A DNA stretch of 60,884 nt from a bacterium. GTDB lineage: Bacteria; Chloroflexota; Dormibacteria; Aeolococcales; Aeolococcaceae. The notes under the pieces are model-generated. The model worked only from the letters and a program-made list of their open reading frames with translations, ran no database searches and was not told the origin of the DNA. Position numbers and translations under genes: made by a program. The stretch lies in NCBI GenBank assembly GCA_021847925.1, contig JAJZNI010000164.1, positions 1-60,884 of the forward strand. Reading direction: 5' to 3'. Below are positions 20,909 through 29,171 of the stretch, one piece after another. The stretch's first letter is position 1. Each line of letters begins with the position of its first letter.

Positions 20909-20986
20909 TGGGGTGGCGGGAGGGATTCGAACCCTCGACCTCCTGATCCACAGTCAGGCGCTCTAACCAGCTGAGCTACTGCCACC
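20909..20986 (-). tRNA. tRNA-His (anticodon GTG), with encoded G-1 and CCA
   Basis: The reverse complement folds as G(-1) GTGGCAG TA GCTC AGCTGGTTA GAGC G CCTGA CTGTGGA TCAGG AGGTC GAGGG TTCGAAT CCCTC CCGCCAC C CCA. G-1:C73 is the His identity element. One A6:C67 mismatch. Confidence 0.9.
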
Positions 20987-21093: not shown

Positions 21094-21170
21094 GCCCCCT
21101 TAGCTCAGCGGAATAGAGCGGCCGCCTTCTAAGCGGCGGGTCGCAGGTTCGAGTCCTGCAGGGGGCGCCA
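21094..21170 (+). tRNA. tRNA-Arg (anticodon TCT, reads AGA), CCA encoded
   Basis: GCCCCCT TA GCTC AGCGGAATA GAGC G GCCGC CTTCTAA GCGGC GGGTC GCAGG TTCGAGT CCTGC AGGGGGC G CCA. Perfect cloverleaf. Confidence 0.9.
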
Positions 21171-21302: not shown

Positions 21303-23081
21303 GTGACCACACCGGAGACGGCGCCAACCCTGAAGCCGGGTGACGTGTTCGCCGGGCGGTATCGGATCAGATCCCGCCTCGGCGAGGGCCACCGGAAGGT
21401 CGTCTATCTCGCCCACGACGGCCGAATGTACCGCGATGTGTCCCTCGCCCTGCTCAAGCGGCACGCCTGGGAGCAGGATCCGACCGCGGCCGAGCAGGAG
21501 ATGCGAGTTCTCGGCGCGGTCGGCCGCCACGACAACATCGTCACCCCCTACGACACCGGGACGGTCGGAACCCAACACTACATGGTGTTCGAGTATCTCC
21601 CCGGTGGCACGCTGCTCGATCACCTCGTGCAGCTGCGTTCCCGAGGGCAGATGCTCCGTGGGGAGGACATACTCCGCCTCGGACGCCAGCTCTGCCGTGC
21701 CCTCTCGCACCTTCACGGGCGGGGAATCATCCACCGGGACCTGTGCCCGAAGAACGTCTGGCTCGACGAACGCCTCGCCGCCCACATCGGCGATTTCGAC
21801 ACCGCGATACTCGCTGCGGACGTCCCCCCTCGCCTCCGTCCGTTGACAAACGGCAGCTATGCGGCTCCCGAAGAGAGCACCGGAGGCCCGATCGATGAGC
21901 GTTCCGATCTGTTCTCGCTCGGAGGCGTCCTCTTCACAGCCGCCGCCGGCCCGGACACGACTCCGCGTCAGCCGGAAGCCCTGTGCGCCACACGCCCGGA
22001 TCTGCCACGCTCCTTCGCTCGTCTCCTCTCCCGACTTCTTTCCAACGATCCCGACGATCGGCCCTCGGACGCCGAGAGCGTGCTCAACTCCCTCCTCGAG
22101 ATCCGGGCGGACCTCGCCAAACATCGCCCGGATCAGGCGTCCAGCAGTATCGACTTCCCCACCCCTGATCCCGCCGAGCTCAGGCTCGCCGCTCAGGTGC
22201 AGCCGACCCGCTACTCGCCCGGCGACGTCATCGGGGGCCGCTTTGATGTGCTTGACCTCCTGGGGCAGGGCGGGTATTCACGCGTCTACCGTGTCCGGGA
22301 CACCGTGGAAGGCGAGGAACGAGCGCTCAAGCTGTTCGACAATGCGGCCGGCTATGAGGCTGTCCGACGCGAGCTCGGCGCTCTGAGGAAGATCCGCCAC
22401 CCGCGCGTCGTCGAAGTGTTCTGGGCCGACAAGACCGACGCCGGCGAATGGTACCTGGTCACCGAGTTCATCGATGGCGAGCCTCTCACCAAGTATGCGG
22501 AGGGCCAAGCTCGCCTTCCAGACCGTGAGGCGGTGGGTCTGTTATTGGATGTGCTCGATGCCGTGGTGGCGATACATCCGGACATCCAACGCATCGAGAC
22601 GCTGAAGGAGAAGGGAACGCGATCAGATCTGTCCGCTGACGAATTCTCCGAGCTCCAGCGCCTTCAGGACGCGGGACTTGTTCATCGTGACCTCAAACCC
22701 AGTAACATCATGCTCACCAGGAAGGGCGCACGGTTGCTGGACTTCAACATAGCATCGCGGGTCGGCGAGACTGTGAGGACCCAGTCCGGTACGCCCGCGT
22801 ATCAGGCGCCGGATTCCCTTCTCACTCGCTGGGATGTATCAACTGACCTGTTCGCGATCGGTGTCGTCCTGTGGAAGCTGCTGTGTGACGGCCAACACCC
22901 CTATCCCGGTGCCAAGCCGATGGTTGACGCGATCCCTCTCGACCCCCAGCAGCTCCGCCCCGACCTCCCTCCTCGCCTGGCCCATTTCCTCACCAAGGCC
23001 TGCGCTCCCGACCGGAGAGATCGATTCCAAAGTGCGGCCGCAATGCGAGACGAGCTCCTGGAGATCCGCGCACTTCTGTAG
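21303..23081 (+). CDS. Soluble protein with two tandem Ser/Thr protein kinase domains (tandem kinase)
   Basis: Domain 1: LGEGHRKVVY, ALLK, IIHRDLCPKNVWL, GDFDTA, YAAPE, DLFSLGGVLF. Domain 2: LGQGGYSRVYRV, ALKLF, LVHRDLKPSNIML, LLDFNIA, AYQAPD, DLFAIGVVLW. No TM or other recognisable domain. GTG start after ggagag. Confidence 0.8.
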   Translation: MTTPETAPTLKPGDVFAGRYRIRSRLGEGHRKVVYLAHDGRMYRDVSLALLKRHAWEQDPTAAEQEMRVLGAVGRHDNIVTPYDTGTVGTQHYMVFEYLPGGTLLDHLVQLRSRGQMLRGEDILRLGRQLCRALSHLHGRGIIHRDLCPKNVWLDERLAAHIGDFDTAILAADVPPRLRPLTNGSYAAPEESTGGPIDERSDLFSLGGVLFTAAAGPDTTPRQPEALCATRPDLPRSFARLLSRLLSNDPDDRPSDAESVLNSLLEIRADLAKHRPDQASSSIDFPTPDPAELRLAAQVQPTRYSPGDVIGGRFDVLDLLGQGGYSRVYRVRDTVEGEERALKLFDNAAGYEAVRRELGALRKIRHPRVVEVFWADKTDAGEWYLVTEFIDGEPLTKYAEGQARLPDREAVGLLLDVLDAVVAIHPDIQRIETLKEKGTRSDLSADEFSELQRLQDAGLVHRDLKPSNIMLTRKGARLLDFNIASRVGETVRTQSGTPAYQAPDSLLTRWDVSTDLFAIGVVLWKLLCDGQHPYPGAKPMVDAIPLDPQQLRPDLPPRLAHFLTKACAPDRRDRFQSAAAMRDELLEIRALL

Positions 23082-23910: not shown

Positions 23911-24137
23911 TCCCGACCCGGGCGAACGGGCGACCGGCCCTCGCCGCCCGTGCTCCCGACCCCAACGCCGTGGGCCGGGAGCACGGAGAGGGCCGTCCTC
24001 CATCACCGTCCCCGTCTGGAAGCGGGCTCAGGCAGGGGCGGGACGTTGCGGATGCCGGCTCACCGTCGCGGCGCCATGCACTCCCATCCCGTCGCCGAGC
24101 GCGGCACCGGGACCGGAAGCCTCCTCTCCGCGAGGGG

Positions 24138-24338
24138 TCAGGCGGCGCGGACCTGCGCCGCGCGCGGTCCCTTGACGCTGCGCTCGACCTCGAAGGCCAC
24201 GCGGTCACCCGCGGCGAGCTGGTCGAAGTTGAGCGAGCTGTCCAGTCCGCTGCGATGGAAGAAGTACTCCTCTCCATCGTCGGCCGCGATGAATCCGAAG
24301 CCGCGCTCGTTCACGACCTTCTTGACGATACCGTTCAC
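24138..24338 (-). CDS. Cold-shock protein (CspA family)
   Basis: 66 aa: VNGIVKKVVNERGFGFIAADDGEEYFFHRSGL...GDRVAFEVERSVKGPRAAQV. RNP1/RNP2-like motifs GFGFI and YFFH. GTG at 24338 is preceded by aaggaggg. The rest of ORF 24138..24863 is spurious. Confidence 0.9.
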   Translation of the reverse strand: MNGIVKKVVNERGFGFIAADDGEEYFFHRSGLDSSLNFDQLAAGDRVAFEVERSVKGPRAAQVRAA

Positions 24339-24481
24339 CGGGACGCCCTCCTTGCCTTCTCCAACGTGCAACCGAACGCTGCGCGTCCGTTCGAGAAGGA
24401 GAAGAGACCACGAGCGACCACTCACAGGAGGTGGGTGACCGAAGCGTACCATGCCGTGCCCGGGCGGGCGCCGCCGCGCGC

Positions 24482-25000
24482 CTACTCGCCGAAGGGCGTG
24501 CCCGCTCGCTCCGCCGAGACCACCTCGCCGATCGGCCGGCGGTTCTTCCTGCCCAGACCCACCCGGCCCGCCGGGTACCCGAAGGGCACCACCGCCAGCA
24601 CCTCGTACCTCGGGTCGAGGCCGACGTGCTCGCGCACCTCCTCCAGGCCGCCGAAGCCCGTCCAGTTGGACCCCACCCCCTCGGCCCAGGCGGTGAGGAT
24701 CATCGTCTGGATGGCGCGGCTCACGTCGGAGACACCGTAGGGACTGGACCGCTCGTAGGCGGCGACGATCGCGAACGCGGCCTGGGCCGTGTACGGCCCG
24801 GTGCTGACCAGCCGGCCCAGCGCACGCAGGCCCTCGCGGTCCCGGACCACCACGAAGTGCCACGGCTGCAGGTTGAGCGAGCTGGCCGACAGACGGCCGG
24901 CCTCCACGATCCGCGTGATCACCTCATCCGGCACCGGACGGTCCTGATAGGCGCGGATCGCGAGCACCGTCCGCACCGCTTCGAACACCTGGTTGGCCAT
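24482..25000 (-). CDS. Nitroreductase family protein
   Basis: MANQVFEAVRTVLAIRAYQDRPVPDEVITRIVEAGRLSASSLNLQPWHFVVV... is the typical nitroreductase fold signature. ATG at 25000 follows gaggag. Confidence 0.85.
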   Translation of the reverse strand: MANQVFEAVRTVLAIRAYQDRPVPDEVITRIVEAGRLSASSLNLQPWHFVVVRDREGLRALGRLVSTGPYTAQAAFAIVAAYERSSPYGVSDVSRAIQTMILTAWAEGVGSNWTGFGGLEEVREHVGLDPRYEVLAVVPFGYPAGRVGLGRKNRRPIGEVVSAERAGTPFGE

Positions 25001-25279
25001 GGCTCCTCGCCTCCGATGGATGCACTCGCCGCGCGACCGGTCCCGGATGAGCTCACCCCGGGGGAGCGGCCGGATCACCCGGTGCTGGCCGGCCCGCTCC
25101 ACGCGGTGCCGCCTCTGTGCTCCTCCCGGTACCGGGCGCTCCGCTCCCGCCGCGGCCTCCGACCCAGAGCATCGCACACCGCTCCGCCCTCCATGAGCGT
25201 CCGCTGCGCCTCCGAGCCCGGGCCCGCATGCGCGGTCCGGGCCCCTGGCGGCCGGCCACCCTCCCTACAATCCCGACCC

Positions 25280-27727
25280 GTGCCCGACGCGGCGCTCCTC
25301 TCGCTCGTCGCCGCCCGCTGGGAGGCGCACCCGGCCACCGGGACGTCGGCCCCCCTGGTCCTCGCGGCGTTCCGCGGCCGCGAGGCGGTCCTGGGGGTCC
25401 TCGAGGGAGAGGACGGCGGCGGTGCCACCACCGAGCCCGCGGCGTCCCGGGCGCCCGATCCCGTGCACCTCGCCGCCATCACCGTCGAGGGGTTCCGCGG
25501 CATCGGCGAGCGCGCCACCCTCCGCCTCCACCCGGCCCCGGGCCTCACCCTGGTCGTGGGGCGCAACGGGTCCGGCAAGTCCTCCTTCTCCGAGGCGCTC
25601 GAGATCCTCCTCCTCGGGACCAACCGGCGCTGGGACAGGCGCTCCCCGGTGTGGCGCGACGGCTGGAGGAACCTCCACCATCGCCACACCGTCATCGAGG
25701 CCCGCTTCGCCGCCGACGGACGCCGGGAGCCGCTCGTCGTGAGCCGCCGCTGGGACGACGGCGCCGGCCTCCAGGAGTCGACGCTCTCGGTGGGCGGGCG
25801 GCAGCGCTCCCTGGAGAGCATCGGTTGGGCGCAGCCCCTCGCCTCGTACCCGCCGCTGCTCTCCCACCACGAGCTGGAGAGCGCGCTGGACGACACGCCG
25901 TCGCACCTGTACGACGCCCTCGCCGGGATCCTCGGCCTGGGCGACCTGAGGGCGGCCCAGGAGACCCTTCGCGGGGTCCGCCTCGACCTGGAGCGCGCCG
26001 TGAGAGCGGCCGGCGACCCCGTCGACGCGCTGGTCCGCCGTCTCGAGGACTCCGCCGACGAGCGGGCCGCGACGGTGCTCGCGGCCCTGCGCAGCAGGCC
26101 CTGGGACCTCGATGCCATCGGCGAGACGCTGAGCGGGGAGGCCGCCGCGGACGAGGGGAGCACGCTGCGCCGGCTCTCCGACCTGGCCGCGCTCCCCGTG
26201 CTGGCACGCGAGGAGCTGGAGGCGACCGTCCGCGGCCTGCGCGACGCGGACCGCCTGGTGACCGAGCTCCAGCGCGGCGAGGGCGCGCGCGCCGACGAGC
26301 TGGCGGACCTCCTGGAGAGGGCGCTCGAGGTCCACGCCCACGCCGCCGGTCAGACCGCCTGCCCGGTGTGCGGGACCGAGGGCGTGCTGACGTACGCGTG
26401 GCGCCGGCACACGGGAGAGCGGCTTCGGTCGCTGCGGGAGGATGCCGAGGCGCTGCGCGCGGCCCGTGCGAGACGGGAGGCGGCGATCGCCGGCGCGACC
26501 CTGCTGGTCACGGCGGTCCCCGCGCCGCTCACGGAGTCGGGGGACCCCGGGGTGCCCGTGGAACCGGCGCTGCAGGCCTGGCGGCGCTGGAGCGCGATCC
26601 CGGAGGGTGGAGATGCCCAGCGGCTCGCCGCCCACCTCCAGGAGCGGGGACAGCAGCTCATCGCCGCCGTCGCCGAGCTGCGCCGCAGCGCGAGGGAGGA
26701 GCTGGATCGGCGCCAGCGCACCTGGCGACCGATCGCCGACACCCTCGTCACGTGGCTGCCGGCCGCGCGCGACGCCCGGGCCGCCGCGGAGCGGGTCCCC
26801 GCCGTTCGCGCCGCCGAGACGTGGCTGCGCGACGCCCACGACGAGCTGCGCGACGAGCGCTTCCGCCCCATCGCCGAGGCGGTCCAGGCCAACTGGAGCG
26901 CCCTGCGCCAGGACAGCAACGTGAGCCTGGGCGTGCTGCGCCTCGCCGGGGCGAGCACGCGGCGGCAGCTCGTCCTCGACGGGAGCGTGGACGGGGAGGC
27001 GGCGCCGCTCCTCGGGGTGATGAGCCAGGGCGAGTTGAACTGCCTCGCCCTCTCGCTCTTCCTCCCCCGCGCGTCCCAGCCCGAGTCCCCATTTCGCTTC
27101 GTGGTCATCGACGACCCCGTGCAGGCCATGGATCCCTCCAAGGTCGAGGGGCTGGCGACGGCGCTGGCGGCCGCGGCGCGGGACCGCCAGGTGGTGGTCC
27201 TCACCCACGACACGCGCCTGCCCGAGGCGGTCCGGTTCCTCCGCCTCCCCGCCACGGTGATCGAGGTTGCGCGCCGCGAGGGATCGATCGTCGAGCTGCG
27301 CGAGCTGGACAGCCCGGTGCGCCGTCACATCGACGACGCCCTGGCGGTGGCCCGGAGCGACGGGCTCCCCCCGGAGGCCCGCCGGGTGGTGGCGGGCTTC
27401 TGCCGCATGGCCCTGGAGGCGGCGGCCACCCGGGCGGTGGCGCAGAGGATGCGCCGGGAGGGCAGGCGCTTCGCGGACGTGGAGGCTGAGCTGGAGCGTC
27501 CCACCACGCTCCTCATGCTCCTCGCCCTGGCGCTCTTCGGCGACGCGTCGCGCTCCGCCGACGTCGTCCCCCGGCTGGCGCGCGACGAGCCGGGCGCGGC
27601 CGAGACGCTGCGCATCTGCAACCGGGGCGCGCACGGCGGGGCGATCCCCGGCGATCCCGCCGCCTTCGTGAGGGTGGTCGAATCCCTGACCCGGCTGCTC
27701 GCACCGCCGGAGCCGGCCGGTGGCTGA
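25280..27727 (+). CDS. Rad50/SbcC/RloC-like ABC ATPase with coiled-coil insertion, CxxC zinc hook and a C-terminal HEPN/DUF4145-like domain
   Basis: C-terminal 815 aa of ORF 24431..27727. Walker A GRNGSGKSS, signature MSQGELNCLALSLF, Walker B FVVIDDPVQAMD, H-loop VLTHDTRL. About 350 aa of helical, Arg/Glu/Ala/Leu-rich sequence lie between the head halves, with CPVCG at aa 361-364 (nt 26360-26374). C-terminal motif LRICNRGAHG (R778...H785, nt 27611-27634). GTG at 25280 lies 8 nt after TACAAT (alternative ATG at 25193). Confidence 0.8.
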   Translation: MPDAALLSLVAARWEAHPATGTSAPLVLAAFRGREAVLGVLEGEDGGGATTEPAASRAPDPVHLAAITVEGFRGIGERATLRLHPAPGLTLVVGRNGSGKSSFSEALEILLLGTNRRWDRRSPVWRDGWRNLHHRHTVIEARFAADGRREPLVVSRRWDDGAGLQESTLSVGGRQRSLESIGWAQPLASYPPLLSHHELESALDDTPSHLYDALAGILGLGDLRAAQETLRGVRLDLERAVRAAGDPVDALVRRLEDSADERAATVLAALRSRPWDLDAIGETLSGEAAADEGSTLRRLSDLAALPVLAREELEATVRGLRDADRLVTELQRGEGARADELADLLERALEVHAHAAGQTACPVCGTEGVLTYAWRRHTGERLRSLREDAEALRAARARREAAIAGATLLVTAVPAPLTESGDPGVPVEPALQAWRRWSAIPEGGDAQRLAAHLQERGQQLIAAVAELRRSAREELDRRQRTWRPIADTLVTWLPAARDARAAAERVPAVRAAETWLRDAHDELRDERFRPIAEAVQANWSALRQDSNVSLGVLRLAGASTRRQLVLDGSVDGEAAPLLGVMSQGELNCLALSLFLPRASQPESPFRFVVIDDPVQAMDPSKVEGLATALAAAARDRQVVVLTHDTRLPEAVRFLRLPATVIEVARREGSIVELRELDSPVRRHIDDALAVARSDGLPPEARRVVAGFCRMALEAAATRAVAQRMRREGRRFADVEAELERPTTLLMLLALALFGDASRSADVVPRLARDEPGAAETLRICNRGAHGGAIPGDPAAFVRVVESLTRLLAPPEPAGG

Positions 27728-28148
27728 GGAGAGCGACCCCCACGCCCTGGTCGCCGCCGCCCGCGATGTGGCCCGCATCGAGACGGAGGCCACCGCCGGG
27801 CTGTGGCCCAGGGCGGCCGCCCTCCTCACCCGCCAGGCCCTGGAGGCCGCGATGGCACGCCTCTGGGCGGCCACGGCCCCGGGGCTGGAGCGCACCTCCG
27901 GTCGCTGCCAGGTCCTCTGCGTGGGCACCCTCCTCGGCGACCCGGACCTCGGCGGCCGCGTCACTCTCGCCTGGAACGTCCTCTCGGAGGCCTGCCACCA
28001 CCGCGTGTACCGGCTGCCCCCCACCGCCTCCGAGCTGGAGCGGGCTTTCGAGGCGGCGTGGGACCTCGCCGAGGCGACGGAGGCCCTGGCCTGCGAGGCC
28101 GCGGAGAGGCGCGGGCGGCTCCCCCCCCGCGCTGAGGGTCTCCCGTGA
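27720..28148 (+). CDS. Small helical protein, apparent paralogue of the upstream ATPase C-terminal domain (motif Arg replaced by Asn)
   Basis: 142-aa ORF with very high GC3. Its GTG overlaps the ATPase stop (GTGGCTGA). By-eye alignment: TRQALEAAMARLW vs CRMALEAAATRAV, GTLLGD vs LALFGD, WNVLSEACHH vs LRICNRGAHG. Confidence 0.6.
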   Translation: MAEESDPHALVAAARDVARIETEATAGLWPRAAALLTRQALEAAMARLWAATAPGLERTSGRCQVLCVGTLLGDPDLGGRVTLAWNVLSEACHHRVYRLPPTASELERAFEAAWDLAEATEALACEAAERRGRLPPRAEGLP

Positions 28149-28206
28149 CCCGCGGCAGCCCCTCCCCCGCCGCCGTCCCCTCCCTGTGCGACGTTTCAAC
28201 CAGTAC

Positions 28207-28235
28207 TTGACAGCTTCAACAACCACTGGTAATGT
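28207..28235 (+). promoter_or_regulatory. Sigma-70-type promoter candidate for the YheO-like regulator operon
   Basis: TTGACA (28207-28212), 17-nt spacer, TAATGT (28230-28235), in a locally AT-rich stretch 55 nt upstream of the GTG at 28290. The TTCAAC direct repeats (28195-28200, 28215-28220) flank the -35 box. Confidence 0.5.
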
Positions 28236-28289
28236 CCCGCGCCACCACAAGTCCCGCGGACGAGGACGCAGCGCATCCGAGGCACCGAG

Positions 28290-29171
28290 GTGGCACAGCA
28301 GAGATCCCCTGCCCTCGCCGGCGAGCGAGACCACGCGCGGCTCGCCCGGAGCACCGCGCGGGAATCGACGGCCGCTCGGGAAGCGGTGGTGGCCACGCTC
28401 CGATCCCTGGTGGAGCCTCTCGCCACGGCGCTGGGACCCGGCAACGAGGTCGTCGTCCACGATCTCGCATTGCTCCCCAACTCGATCGTTGCGATAAGCG
28501 GTGGCGTCACCGGACGGTCCATCGGGGGGCCGGCCACCGATCTCCTGCTCCAGGAGACGCGGCGGGGGCGGGGCGAGGACCTGCTCCGCTACAGGAGCAG
28601 CACGCGGGCCGGCGTCCCCCTGCTCTCGTCGACCATCTTCGTCAGGGACGCGAACGGAGTCCCGATCGCGTCCCTGTGCATCAACACGGACCAGTCCGCC
28701 TGGCTGCAGATGCAGCCCCTGGTCCTGCCCGCCACCGGGGCCCCCGCCCGGGCGCCGGCCCCGACGCCCGGCTCCGAGCACGCCGCCGGGCCGGCCCAGG
28801 AGACGTTCCCGGCCTCGGTCGAGAGCCTCACCGCCAGCATGGTCGACCAGGCGATCCTGAGCATCGGCGTCCGGGTCGAGCTGATGCAGCGTGCCCACAA
28901 GCTGGAGGTGGTGAGGAAGCTCGAGGCGGGGGGTGTGTTCCTCATCAGGGACGCGGTGGACTACGTGGCCGGCGCTCTCCAGGTCACGCGCTACACGATC
29001 TACAACTACCTGAGCGAGATCCGCGAGCAGTCATCGGGAGTGCGCGCCAACGGCAGGAGGGCCACCATGAAGCGACTTCCGTTGGGGCCGGCCGCCGCCC
29101 CGGAGACGGACGGCGCGGCGCCGGGATCCGCCGCGTGCCGCCGGCCCTCGAAGGCGCGGGGGGTTGCGTAG
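28290..29171 (+). CDS. YheO/DauR-like transcriptional regulator (PAS_6-type sensor + C-terminal HTH)
   Basis: NEVVVHDLALLPNSIVAISGGVTGRSIGGPATDLLL is the YheO-like PAS signature. The C-terminal part KLEVVRKLEAGGVFLIRDAVDYVAGALQVTRYTIYNYLSE is HTH-like. Confidence 0.8.
   Translation: MAQQRSPALAGERDHARLARSTARESTAAREAVVATLRSLVEPLATALGPGNEVVVHDLALLPNSIVAISGGVTGRSIGGPATDLLLQETRRGRGEDLLRYRSSTRAGVPLLSSTIFVRDANGVPIASLCINTDQSAWLQMQPLVLPATGAPARAPAPTPGSEHAAGPAQETFPASVESLTASMVDQAILSIGVRVELMQRAHKLEVVRKLEAGGVFLIRDAVDYVAGALQVTRYTIYNYLSEIREQSSGVRANGRRATMKRLPLGPAAAPETDGAAPGSAACRRPSKARGVA

Follow-up and report, generated by a model that had tools for sequence, protein, structure and literature searches.

In a 60,884-nucleotide stretch of DNA from a bacterium of the class Dormibacteria (GenBank assembly GCA_021847925.1, contig JAJZNI010000164.1; hereafter, the window), we find that the gene at 25280..27727 (+ strand; GTG start, 815 residues), which encodes an ABC ATPase with a zinc-hook motif, is the large gene of a widespread, unnamed and autonomous two-gene module, the second gene of which (27720..28148, + strand; 142 residues) we refer to as the partner. 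The module probably serves soil bacteria in defence or under stress, as a sensor of nucleic acids. We further propose, tentatively and at somewhat less than an even chance, that the ATPase acts as a zinc-hook sensor controlling a pair of HEPN-like domains without the HEPN arginine, one of which is fused to its own C terminus and the other supplied as the free partner. We infer the defence role from this architecture and from genomic contexts that are patchy and in part plasmid-borne or within defence islands.

The module was delimited through a search of ~185,000 species genomes, at least 559 of which carry the ATPase. From these, 80 homologous loci were fetched, two of which were untestable for pairing (that is, their contigs end at the ATPase); in the other 78, from five phyla, a partner homologue directly follows the ATPase without exception. 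The original prediction had described the ATPase as stand-alone, a description that these loci contradict. In the window, the partner open reading frame has the third-position G+C content of coding sequence and overlaps the ATPase stop by 8 nucleotides; across the family, overlaps of 4 or 8 nucleotides are usual, with 4 the commonest (36 of 74 loci), and the partner is predicted to be translationally coupled to the ATPase gene. Partner homologues, typically ~129 residues in length, number 1,019 representatives at 50% identity (E <= 1e-3) and are labelled 'hypothetical protein' in all records. All-against-all clustering of the open reading frames of the 80 loci yielded no third gene conserved family-wide, and at 42 non-redundant loci the 139 flanking proteins had no family in common. 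The ATPase itself has more than 1,600 homologues at E <= 1e-5 (the best 120 listed are 50–99% identical) and a uniform length of ~810–820 residues; given this number of homologues and the invariance of its motif residues, neither the reading frame nor the motifs can be attributed to chance.

Conservation in the ATPase was assessed in an alignment of 79 diverse homologues, to which all residue counts for this protein refer, and the motifs of its nucleotide-binding head (all on the + strand) are retained almost without change. Walker A (GRNGSGKSS, residues 94–102; 25559..25585) is kept at most positions in 77–78 of the 79 sequences (S98 in 76), and the ABC signature (MSQGE, residues 581–585; 27020..27034), which opens the stretch MSQGELNCLALSLF at residues 581–594, is kept in all. 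Walker B and the D-loop form FVVIDDPVQAMD (residues 607–618; 27098..27133), in which D611, D612, P613, V614, Q615, M617 and D618 are each present in 79/79, and the H-loop VLTHDTRL (residues 640–647; 27197..27220) has H643 and D644 in 79/79. The Walker B region reads VIDDPVQxMD, with D612 at the position usually held by the catalytic glutamate of ABC ATPases; RecF likewise has 'DD' at Walker B. Among Pfam models, SMC_N matches above its cut-off (9.8e-16), together with the generic AAA_21, AAA_23 and AAA_15, and the solved structures nearest by profile are SMC and Rad50 heads, the Rad50 N-lobe included (1.6e-11 to 1e-8). No NCBIfam model came near any cut-off on the ATPase; the match to RecF is weak and the ASRP model aligns with residues 320–400. 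The larger gene thus encodes an SMC/Rad50-type ABC ATPase with the size and layout of LmuB and Rad50 and with all nucleotide-binding motifs intact. Homologues carry public labels as diverse as EcfA2, Mn/Zn transporter ATPase, RecF, SbcC and the Gene Ontology term 'double-strand break repair', which appear to derive from generic ABC-domain matches.

Inside the head lies a helical arm of ~290 residues (approximately residues 225–510; 25952..26809, + strand), which we delineated by a periodicity analysis of the 79 sequences: averaged hydrophobicity has a 3.5-residue periodicity at approximately residues 228–270, 298–340, 382–410 and 438–508, with breaks at ~270–298 and 410–438 that are symmetric about the hook motif. 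This motif, CPVCG (residues 361–365; 26360..26374, + strand), lies halfway along the arm; C361, V363 and C364 are found in 79/79 sequences and P362 in 78/79, and W374, just past the motif, is also found in 79/79. For LmuB, the folding point lies at residues 266–276 and 416–432, and the arm of the present ATPase fits a similar antiparallel two-segment design with the predicted hook at its apex. The original prediction of a Rad50/SbcC-type ATPase with CPVC at the arm midpoint is upheld by the SMC_N match and by the invariant cysteines, and every motif that it quoted was recovered at the residues it gave (that is, the Walker A, hook and H-loop motifs, MSQGELNCLALSLF and FVVIDDPVQAMD as above, and LRICNRGAHG at 777–786).

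The C-terminal end of the ATPase forms a separate all-alpha domain of ~140 residues (678–815; 27311..27724, + strand). An extra domain of ~170 residues had been proposed, ~30 of which, directly after the H-loop, belong to the ABC head. AlphaFold2 models residues 674–815 as a seven-helix bundle with a mean predicted local distance difference test (pLDDT) score of 91.1. When this model was compared with the PDB using Foldseek, the top match was the HEPN protein 1wwp (E = 1; template modelling (TM) scores 0.40/0.46), followed by HepT and 8xeh (TM ~0.3); the viral BFVD collection gave no match. The domain has no family match in Pfam, NCBIfam or PADLOC, and PDB sequence-profile searches with it and with the partner returned noise only. 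Of the HEPN/DUF4145-like domain that had been suggested here, a weak structural likeness to HEPN is seen in the match to 1wwp, and Pfam holds no HEPN or DUF4145 model that matches.

Two motifs of this domain are of particular relevance. C708-R709-x3-E713 (27401..27418, + strand) lies on the long second helix and, with C708 and E713 in 79/79 sequences and R709 in 78/79, is the invariant core of the domain. The penultimate helix ends in C780-N781-R-G-A-H785 (27617..27634, + strand), in which H785 is present in 72/79 and N781 in 58/79, and position 780 is C, V, A or L. The pair R778-x6-H785 had been put forward as a HEPN Rx4-6H motif, an assignment that we abandon: position 778 is arginine in 30 of the 79 sequences, lysine in 28 and another residue in 21, and because R778 is not conserved, there is no canonical Rx4-6H in the domain. 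In the register of the HEPN motif R-[NDH]-x3-H, the family reads [C/V/A/L]-N-x3-H.

The clearest HEPN-like fold, as judged from predicted models, is that of the partner, which the original prediction had missed. AlphaFold2 yields five helices (pLDDT 90.9), and the best Foldseek match in the PDB is 2hsb (TM 0.65/0.72, root-mean-square deviation 2.9, probability 1.0), with HepT (7bxo and 6m6u, up to TM 0.62/0.66), 7ae8/7ae9 (~0.6) and 2q00 (0.58/0.66) also aligned. The list consists mostly of HEPN proteins, including ~15 further HEPN chains at TM 0.45–0.66, and also holds 1wwp, 1wol, 1ylm and 3o10; 1wwp, 2hsb and 2q00 are structures of the HEPN superfamily (PMC3710099). HEPN domains are up-down bundles of four helices in which helices 2 and 3 are separated by an insert, and the model agrees with this description. 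It resembles the PaREP1/8 (PDB 2q00) and c2405 proteins and the MNT-associated HEPN proteins (1wwp, 2hsb and HepT) in predicted fold, in a histidine that ends core helix 3 and in a conserved acidic residue on helix 2, and differs from them in having R-x3-E instead of E-x3-[KR], in the absence of an adjacent MNT gene and in the lack of a profile match (the partner matched nothing in Pfam, NCBIfam or PADLOC). The motif R38-Q-A-L-E42 (27831..27845, + strand) lies on the long helix 2, with R38, Q39 and E42 invariant in the partner alignment, and L88-S89-x-A-C92-H93-H94-x2-Y97 (27981..28010, + strand) runs from the end of helix 4 into the loop that precedes the last helix, with L88, S89, C92, H93 and Y97 invariant; 95% or more of 140 diverse sequences retain R38, and the same holds for H93. 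Read in the HEPN register, this second motif is L-S-x3-H, in which L88 and S89 replace R-[NDH] and no arginine is present.

The C-terminal domain of the ATPase and the partner seem to be divergent versions of a single domain. Profile–profile alignment of diverse sequence sets (75 C-terminal domains, and either 75 or 140 partners) with hhalign gave P = 7e-4 over 108 columns and paired CRxALEAA with ARQALE and NRGAH with ACHH. When 43 C-terminal domains and 105 partners were aligned together with MAFFT (148 sequences), five columns proved to be conserved at 90% or above, three of which are R709/R38, E713/E42 and H785/H93. The two structural models place these residues alike: R-x3-E lies on the long second helix, and the histidine closes the penultimate helix, ahead of the loop that leads to the final one. 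In HEPN proteins, the active site combines an acidic residue of helix 2 with a motif that ends helix 3 (PMC3710099); the R-x3-E...H of both domains lies at these positions, with the histidine kept and the arginine lost; HEPN proteins that lack the arginine and keep the histidine have precedents in PaREP1/8 and c2405 (PMC3710099). At the nucleotide level, two 41-nucleotide stretches (27384–27424 and 27811–27851; 71% identity) form a direct repeat, of which the first copy codes for GFCRMALEAA of the C-terminal domain and the second for LLTRQALEAA of the partner. The repeat agrees with a common origin of the two domains, and high-G+C codon bias could be an alternative cause.

The module occurs in Dormibacterota, Chloroflexota, Acidobacteriota, Actinomycetota and Gemmatimonadota, with 41–67% identity between phyla, and some metagenome-assembled genomes (MAGs) hold two paralogues. 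In the collections searched, the only cultured actinomycete sequences with the ATPase were a pair of Streptomyces plasmids and a single Nocardia replicon. The Streptomyces copies (Streptomyces sp. M92 plasmid pM92 and an S. anthocyanicus plasmid), whose ATPase is ~40% identical and whose partner has 138 residues, are embedded in a common island with genes for DUF6119, NB-ARC/TPR STAND-like proteins, a 1,185-residue UvrD-like helicase and a DNA methyltransferase, and with a Ser/Thr kinase gene annotated only on pM92; in the S. anthocyanicus record the ATPase is in two open reading frames, possibly through a frameshift. Elsewhere, MADS, DrmD, type III methyltransferase, HEC-05, PD-(D/E)XK, Uma2 and IrrE genes are sporadic neighbours, and PIN toxin–antitoxin modules and SRA-HNH and ERCC4 genes lie near two copies on long contigs. 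These variable neighbourhoods, plasmid-borne copies and occasional defence-like islands make the role in conflict or stress sensing that had been suggested earlier a plausible one.

Two independent links to class III cyclases were found. In an Acidimicrobiaceae MAG (L052, 5387–8868), a variant ATPase of 996 residues in all includes a C-terminal domain with a degenerate motif and, after it, a fused class III adenylate/guanylate cyclase-like domain, and the partner gene has moved upstream in divergent orientation; such cyclase-fused ATPases form three protein clusters among the best 120 listed. In another locus (L045, 5573–8521), a gene for a 983-residue class III cyclase–TPR protein begins 10 nucleotides past the partner stop.

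How such a module might operate we infer by analogy, and this applies to dimerization and cue, to any contact of the partner with the C-terminal domain, to catalysis and to the defence role. As in RloC, Lamassu and Rad50, two ATPase chains would dimerize through a zinc ion shared at their hooks. The heads may then sense a nucleic-acid cue (for example, DNA ends, or foreign or damaged DNA), and ATP-driven engagement of the heads would rearrange the pair formed by the C-terminal domain and the partner. This pair would be the output, which may bind or cleave RNA or a nucleotide ligand and so cause growth arrest or abortive infection. The constancy of the pairing, the ATPase motifs, the partner fold, the kinship of the two helical domains, the topology of their motifs and the conflict-type contexts all count in favour of a sensor ATPase governing two HEPN-like domains, as does the position of the rare cyclases, which are fused or appended where the output would be. 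A bolder version, in which the pair is an undescribed and widespread immune or abortive-infection family whose ATPase senses DNA ends or foreign DNA and switches a composite arginine-less HEPN-like effector, the catalytic arginine perhaps having moved to helix 2 (R709/R38), seems to us possible and on balance doubtful.

A number of observations weigh against this proposal. No Foldseek E-value is significant for either domain (0.2–2 for the partner matches and 0.2–1 for the best overall), the likeness of the C-terminal domain to HEPN is weak by TM score, and a search of 148 C-terminal domains and partners with HEPN-clan and DUF4145 Pfam models at E <= 10 gave zero matches. The kinship signal falls to P = 0.027 when less diverse alignments are used, with the second half in a different register, and RNase activity is doubtful because the canonical catalytic arginine is absent. 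The ATPase is more strongly conserved than defence genes usually are (mean column identity 69%, at uniform length), its flanking genes are mostly metabolic or housekeeping, and synteny is stable within one Dormibacterota clade (~21 loci). In addition, tblastn against phage genomes found no phage-borne copies, and neither PADLOC (PADLOC-DB v2.0.0) nor NCBIfam recognizes the pair as a defence system.

Several of these points are shared by the main rival, in which the module has no immune function and is a housekeeping factor of DNA repair or chromosome maintenance; its ATPase, like Rad50, RecF or RecN, would tether DNA ends or sense them, and the two helical domains would be non-catalytic adaptor or regulatory modules. 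Besides the high conservation, the stable synteny, the metabolic neighbours and the missing HEPN arginine, this explanation can draw on the solved SMC and Rad50 heads that are nearest to the ATPase, on the RecF-like 'DD' of Walker B with the weak NCBIfam RecF match and on one locus beside sbcCD. With Rad50/SbcC the ATPase shares the hook at the arm midpoint, and archaeal Rad50 likewise has CPVCG as its hook motif; the arm is much shorter here than in Rad50/SbcC, an N-terminal extension and a C-terminal domain are added, and NCBIfam Rad50 models reach 10–19 bits against cut-offs of 450–1087, with the SbcC models also far below theirs. There is no conserved nuclease or recombinase partner, Mre11/SbcD phosphoesterase genes included, which bears out the earlier view that the ATPase is not a repair SbcC; a complete sbcD–sbcC pair lies ~600 nucleotides upstream of the module in only one of the 80 loci (a Dormibacterota MAG; L072, 102–4354), and because it is complete and adjacent, the module is not a substitute for SbcC in that genome. 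Against a maintenance role also count a spread as patchy as at least 559 of ~185,000 species genomes over five phyla, the near-confinement to plasmids in the cultured actinomycetes searched, the presence of two copies in some genomes, and a variable context of toxin–antitoxin, restriction–modification, MADS and STAND genes. We consider DNA maintenance unlikely, although it is the competitor that we take most seriously. A signalling module, in which the ATPase senses cellular state and the helical pair relays it to, for example, cyclases or kinases, would account for the cyclase fusions, for the cyclase–TPR gene behind one partner and for the Ser/Thr kinase genes that the window and pM92 both have close to the pair. 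We regard it as quite improbable, as the cyclase links are rare (3 among the 120 listed), kinases are abundant in such genomes and make up only 2 of the 139 surveyed neighbours, and immune systems also use cyclase outputs.

Membership of an established system offers another set of explanations; of the hallmarks tested for RloC, for Rad50/SbcC and for Lamassu, one or more are missing in each case. The architecture of RloC, an anticodon nuclease that excises the wobble nucleotide, was claimed for the ATPase in the original prediction and stands as regards layout: one chain combines a split ABC head with a CxxC-bearing helical insert and ends in a helical domain that keeps a histidine, and the general logic of an ATPase sensor governing a C-terminal output would be shared. 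Membership of RloC does not stand. AAA_13, which we take to be the Pfam model covering RloC and PrrC, reaches 25.7 bits against a cut-off of 36, over residues 580–651 of the ABC C-lobe only, and a plasmid homologue, at 34.1 bits, is below the cut-off too. The Rx4-6H arginine is variable, the family has no HEPN-clan sequence match, and the structural match of its C-terminal domain falls short of significance; moreover, the taxa concerned are soil Dormibacterota, Acidobacteriota and Actinomycetota. RloC is a single polypeptide (PMC3710099), whereas a small partner is obligatory here, and PrrC works with a type Ic restriction–modification system, whereas no restriction–modification genes are conserved here. 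Fusions of ABC and HEPN domains such as PrrC/RloC and ERFG_01251 are well established (PMC3710099), and a stand-alone anticodon nuclease in which a HEPN tRNase acting through R778 and H785 is gated by the zinc-hook ATPase would match that architecture; given the above differences, we hold it to be highly improbable. The ERFG_01251-type proteins, which occur in defence contexts and join an ABC ATPase to a HEPN domain of the classical MNT type (PMC3710099, Anantharaman et al. 2013), retain Rx4-6H and have another N-terminal domain, and are set apart from the present family by description only.

A compacted Lamassu-like system, that is, a homologue of LmuB (DdmC/ABC-3C) with a C-terminally fused effector and with the partner in the role of LmuC, as a bridging or sequestering subunit near the hook or head, appears improbable, if less so than RloC. 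LmuB is the best PADLOC model on the ATPase (PDLC03859, 3.7e-16, residues 212–649), the Rad50-like core of ~600 residues (here, 63–675) is LmuB-sized, and the short arm has a mid-arm break near the residue numbers of the first LmuB folding point; a zinc hook and a departure from the Walker B consensus are found in LmuB too. However, an E-value of 1e-16 is ordinary between any two ABC ATPases, and the HEC-01A, MAD3, PDC-S06 and AriA models of PADLOC match about equally well. The Walker B change is from E to Q in LmuB and from E to D here, and the operon has two genes with no homologue of LmuA or LmuC, an effector-like domain fused to the ATPase and a partner that is HEPN-like in fold; PADLOC is silent on both of the latter.

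As for the ATPase gene itself, third-position G+C is 0.92–1.00 throughout its frame (25280–27727, + strand), in a window whose overall G+C content is ~0.73. An upstream ATG, which gives the 844-residue product of some public records, was dropped, as the family N terminus MPDxALLxLV starts at residue 1 of the 815-residue form. The GTG at 25280 was kept as the start because MPDxALLxLV is conserved from residue 1 and because a TACAAT hexamer (25266..25271, + strand; read from the sequence) stands 8 nucleotides 5′ of it without a Shine–Dalgarno sequence; no Shine–Dalgarno-like purine run is present ahead of 25280. TACAAT may be the −10 element of a transcript with a short leader or none; a scan of 24900–28400 for consensus promoters and terminators returned no match, TACAAT included. 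Residues 1–62 (25280..25465, + strand) form an N-terminal extension that, in the family alignment, consists of a conserved segment of ~45 residues (MPDxALLxLVxxRL...LVLAAFxG) followed by a variable linker. A29 is invariant in it and L6, L9, V10, R13, A30, F31 and G33 are kept at 90% or above; the extension has no match in Pfam, and we know of no counterpart in Rad50. For the extension and the arm, scans with Pfam, NCBIfam and PADLOC yielded generic ABC matches at most. In 21 Dormibacterota loci (for example, L084, 7622–8008; the other 20 open reading frames end at ~6008), the ATPase start shares 8 nucleotides with a preceding gene, which encodes a lineage-specific protein of ~128 residues with an N-terminal transmembrane segment, a Pro-rich linker and a small C-terminal domain. 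Because of this overlap the operon has three genes in that clade; the transmembrane-protein gene does not occur in the window.

In the window, the pair lies between a nitroreductase gene (− strand) and a cluster encoding a YheO-type regulator, RidA, PALP and a luciferase-like monooxygenase, and a sister genome has the identical arrangement. The sequence TTGACA-N17-TAATGT at 28207–28235 precedes the gene for the YheO-like PAS/HTH regulator (28290–29171), which suggests that this cluster is transcribed apart from the ATPase–partner pair. The 'accessory patch' in which the original prediction placed the ATPase finds little backing in base composition: the G+C content of the gene (0.76–0.78) is not deviant, and the low-G+C stretch (0.63–0.69) lies at 21–23 kb by two tRNA genes. 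These, tRNA-His(GTG) (20909–20985, − strand) and tRNA-Arg(TCT) (21094–21170, + strand), stand back to back just before what is the sole low-G+C stretch of the region, and this edge could be an old island boundary; no att-like direct repeats of the tRNA genes were found downstream. The low-G+C stretch contains a gene (21303–23081, + strand) for a 592-residue protein with tandem kinase-like domains (residues 10–220, StkP/PknB-like, and ~450–587, PknG-like), pM92 also having a Ser/Thr kinase gene near the pair. An open reading frame at 23950–24438 (+ strand) was rejected as a gene, as it has no matches and its third-position G+C signal is explained by a minus-strand cold-shock (CSD) gene of 66 residues (~24138–24338), as called in the syntenic contig L081.

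In summary, the module is an uncharacterized variation on the known theme of ABC ATPases combined with HEPN domains, and its family is mis-annotated in public records, with no family model for the partner or the C-terminal domain in Pfam, NCBIfam or PADLOC. To our knowledge, Dormibacterota, Vicinamibacteria, Acidimicrobiia and Chloroflexota have been little studied for defence. If the module is indeed an immune or stress sensor, it would be a large addition to the repertoire of ABC-ATPase and SMC-type defence (at least 559 species-level genomes, and more than 1,000 partner clusters at 50% identity), and, if our proposal is correct, it would provide a natural test case for HEPN domains that have the histidine without the arginine and for the control of a fused output by a zinc-hook ATPase.

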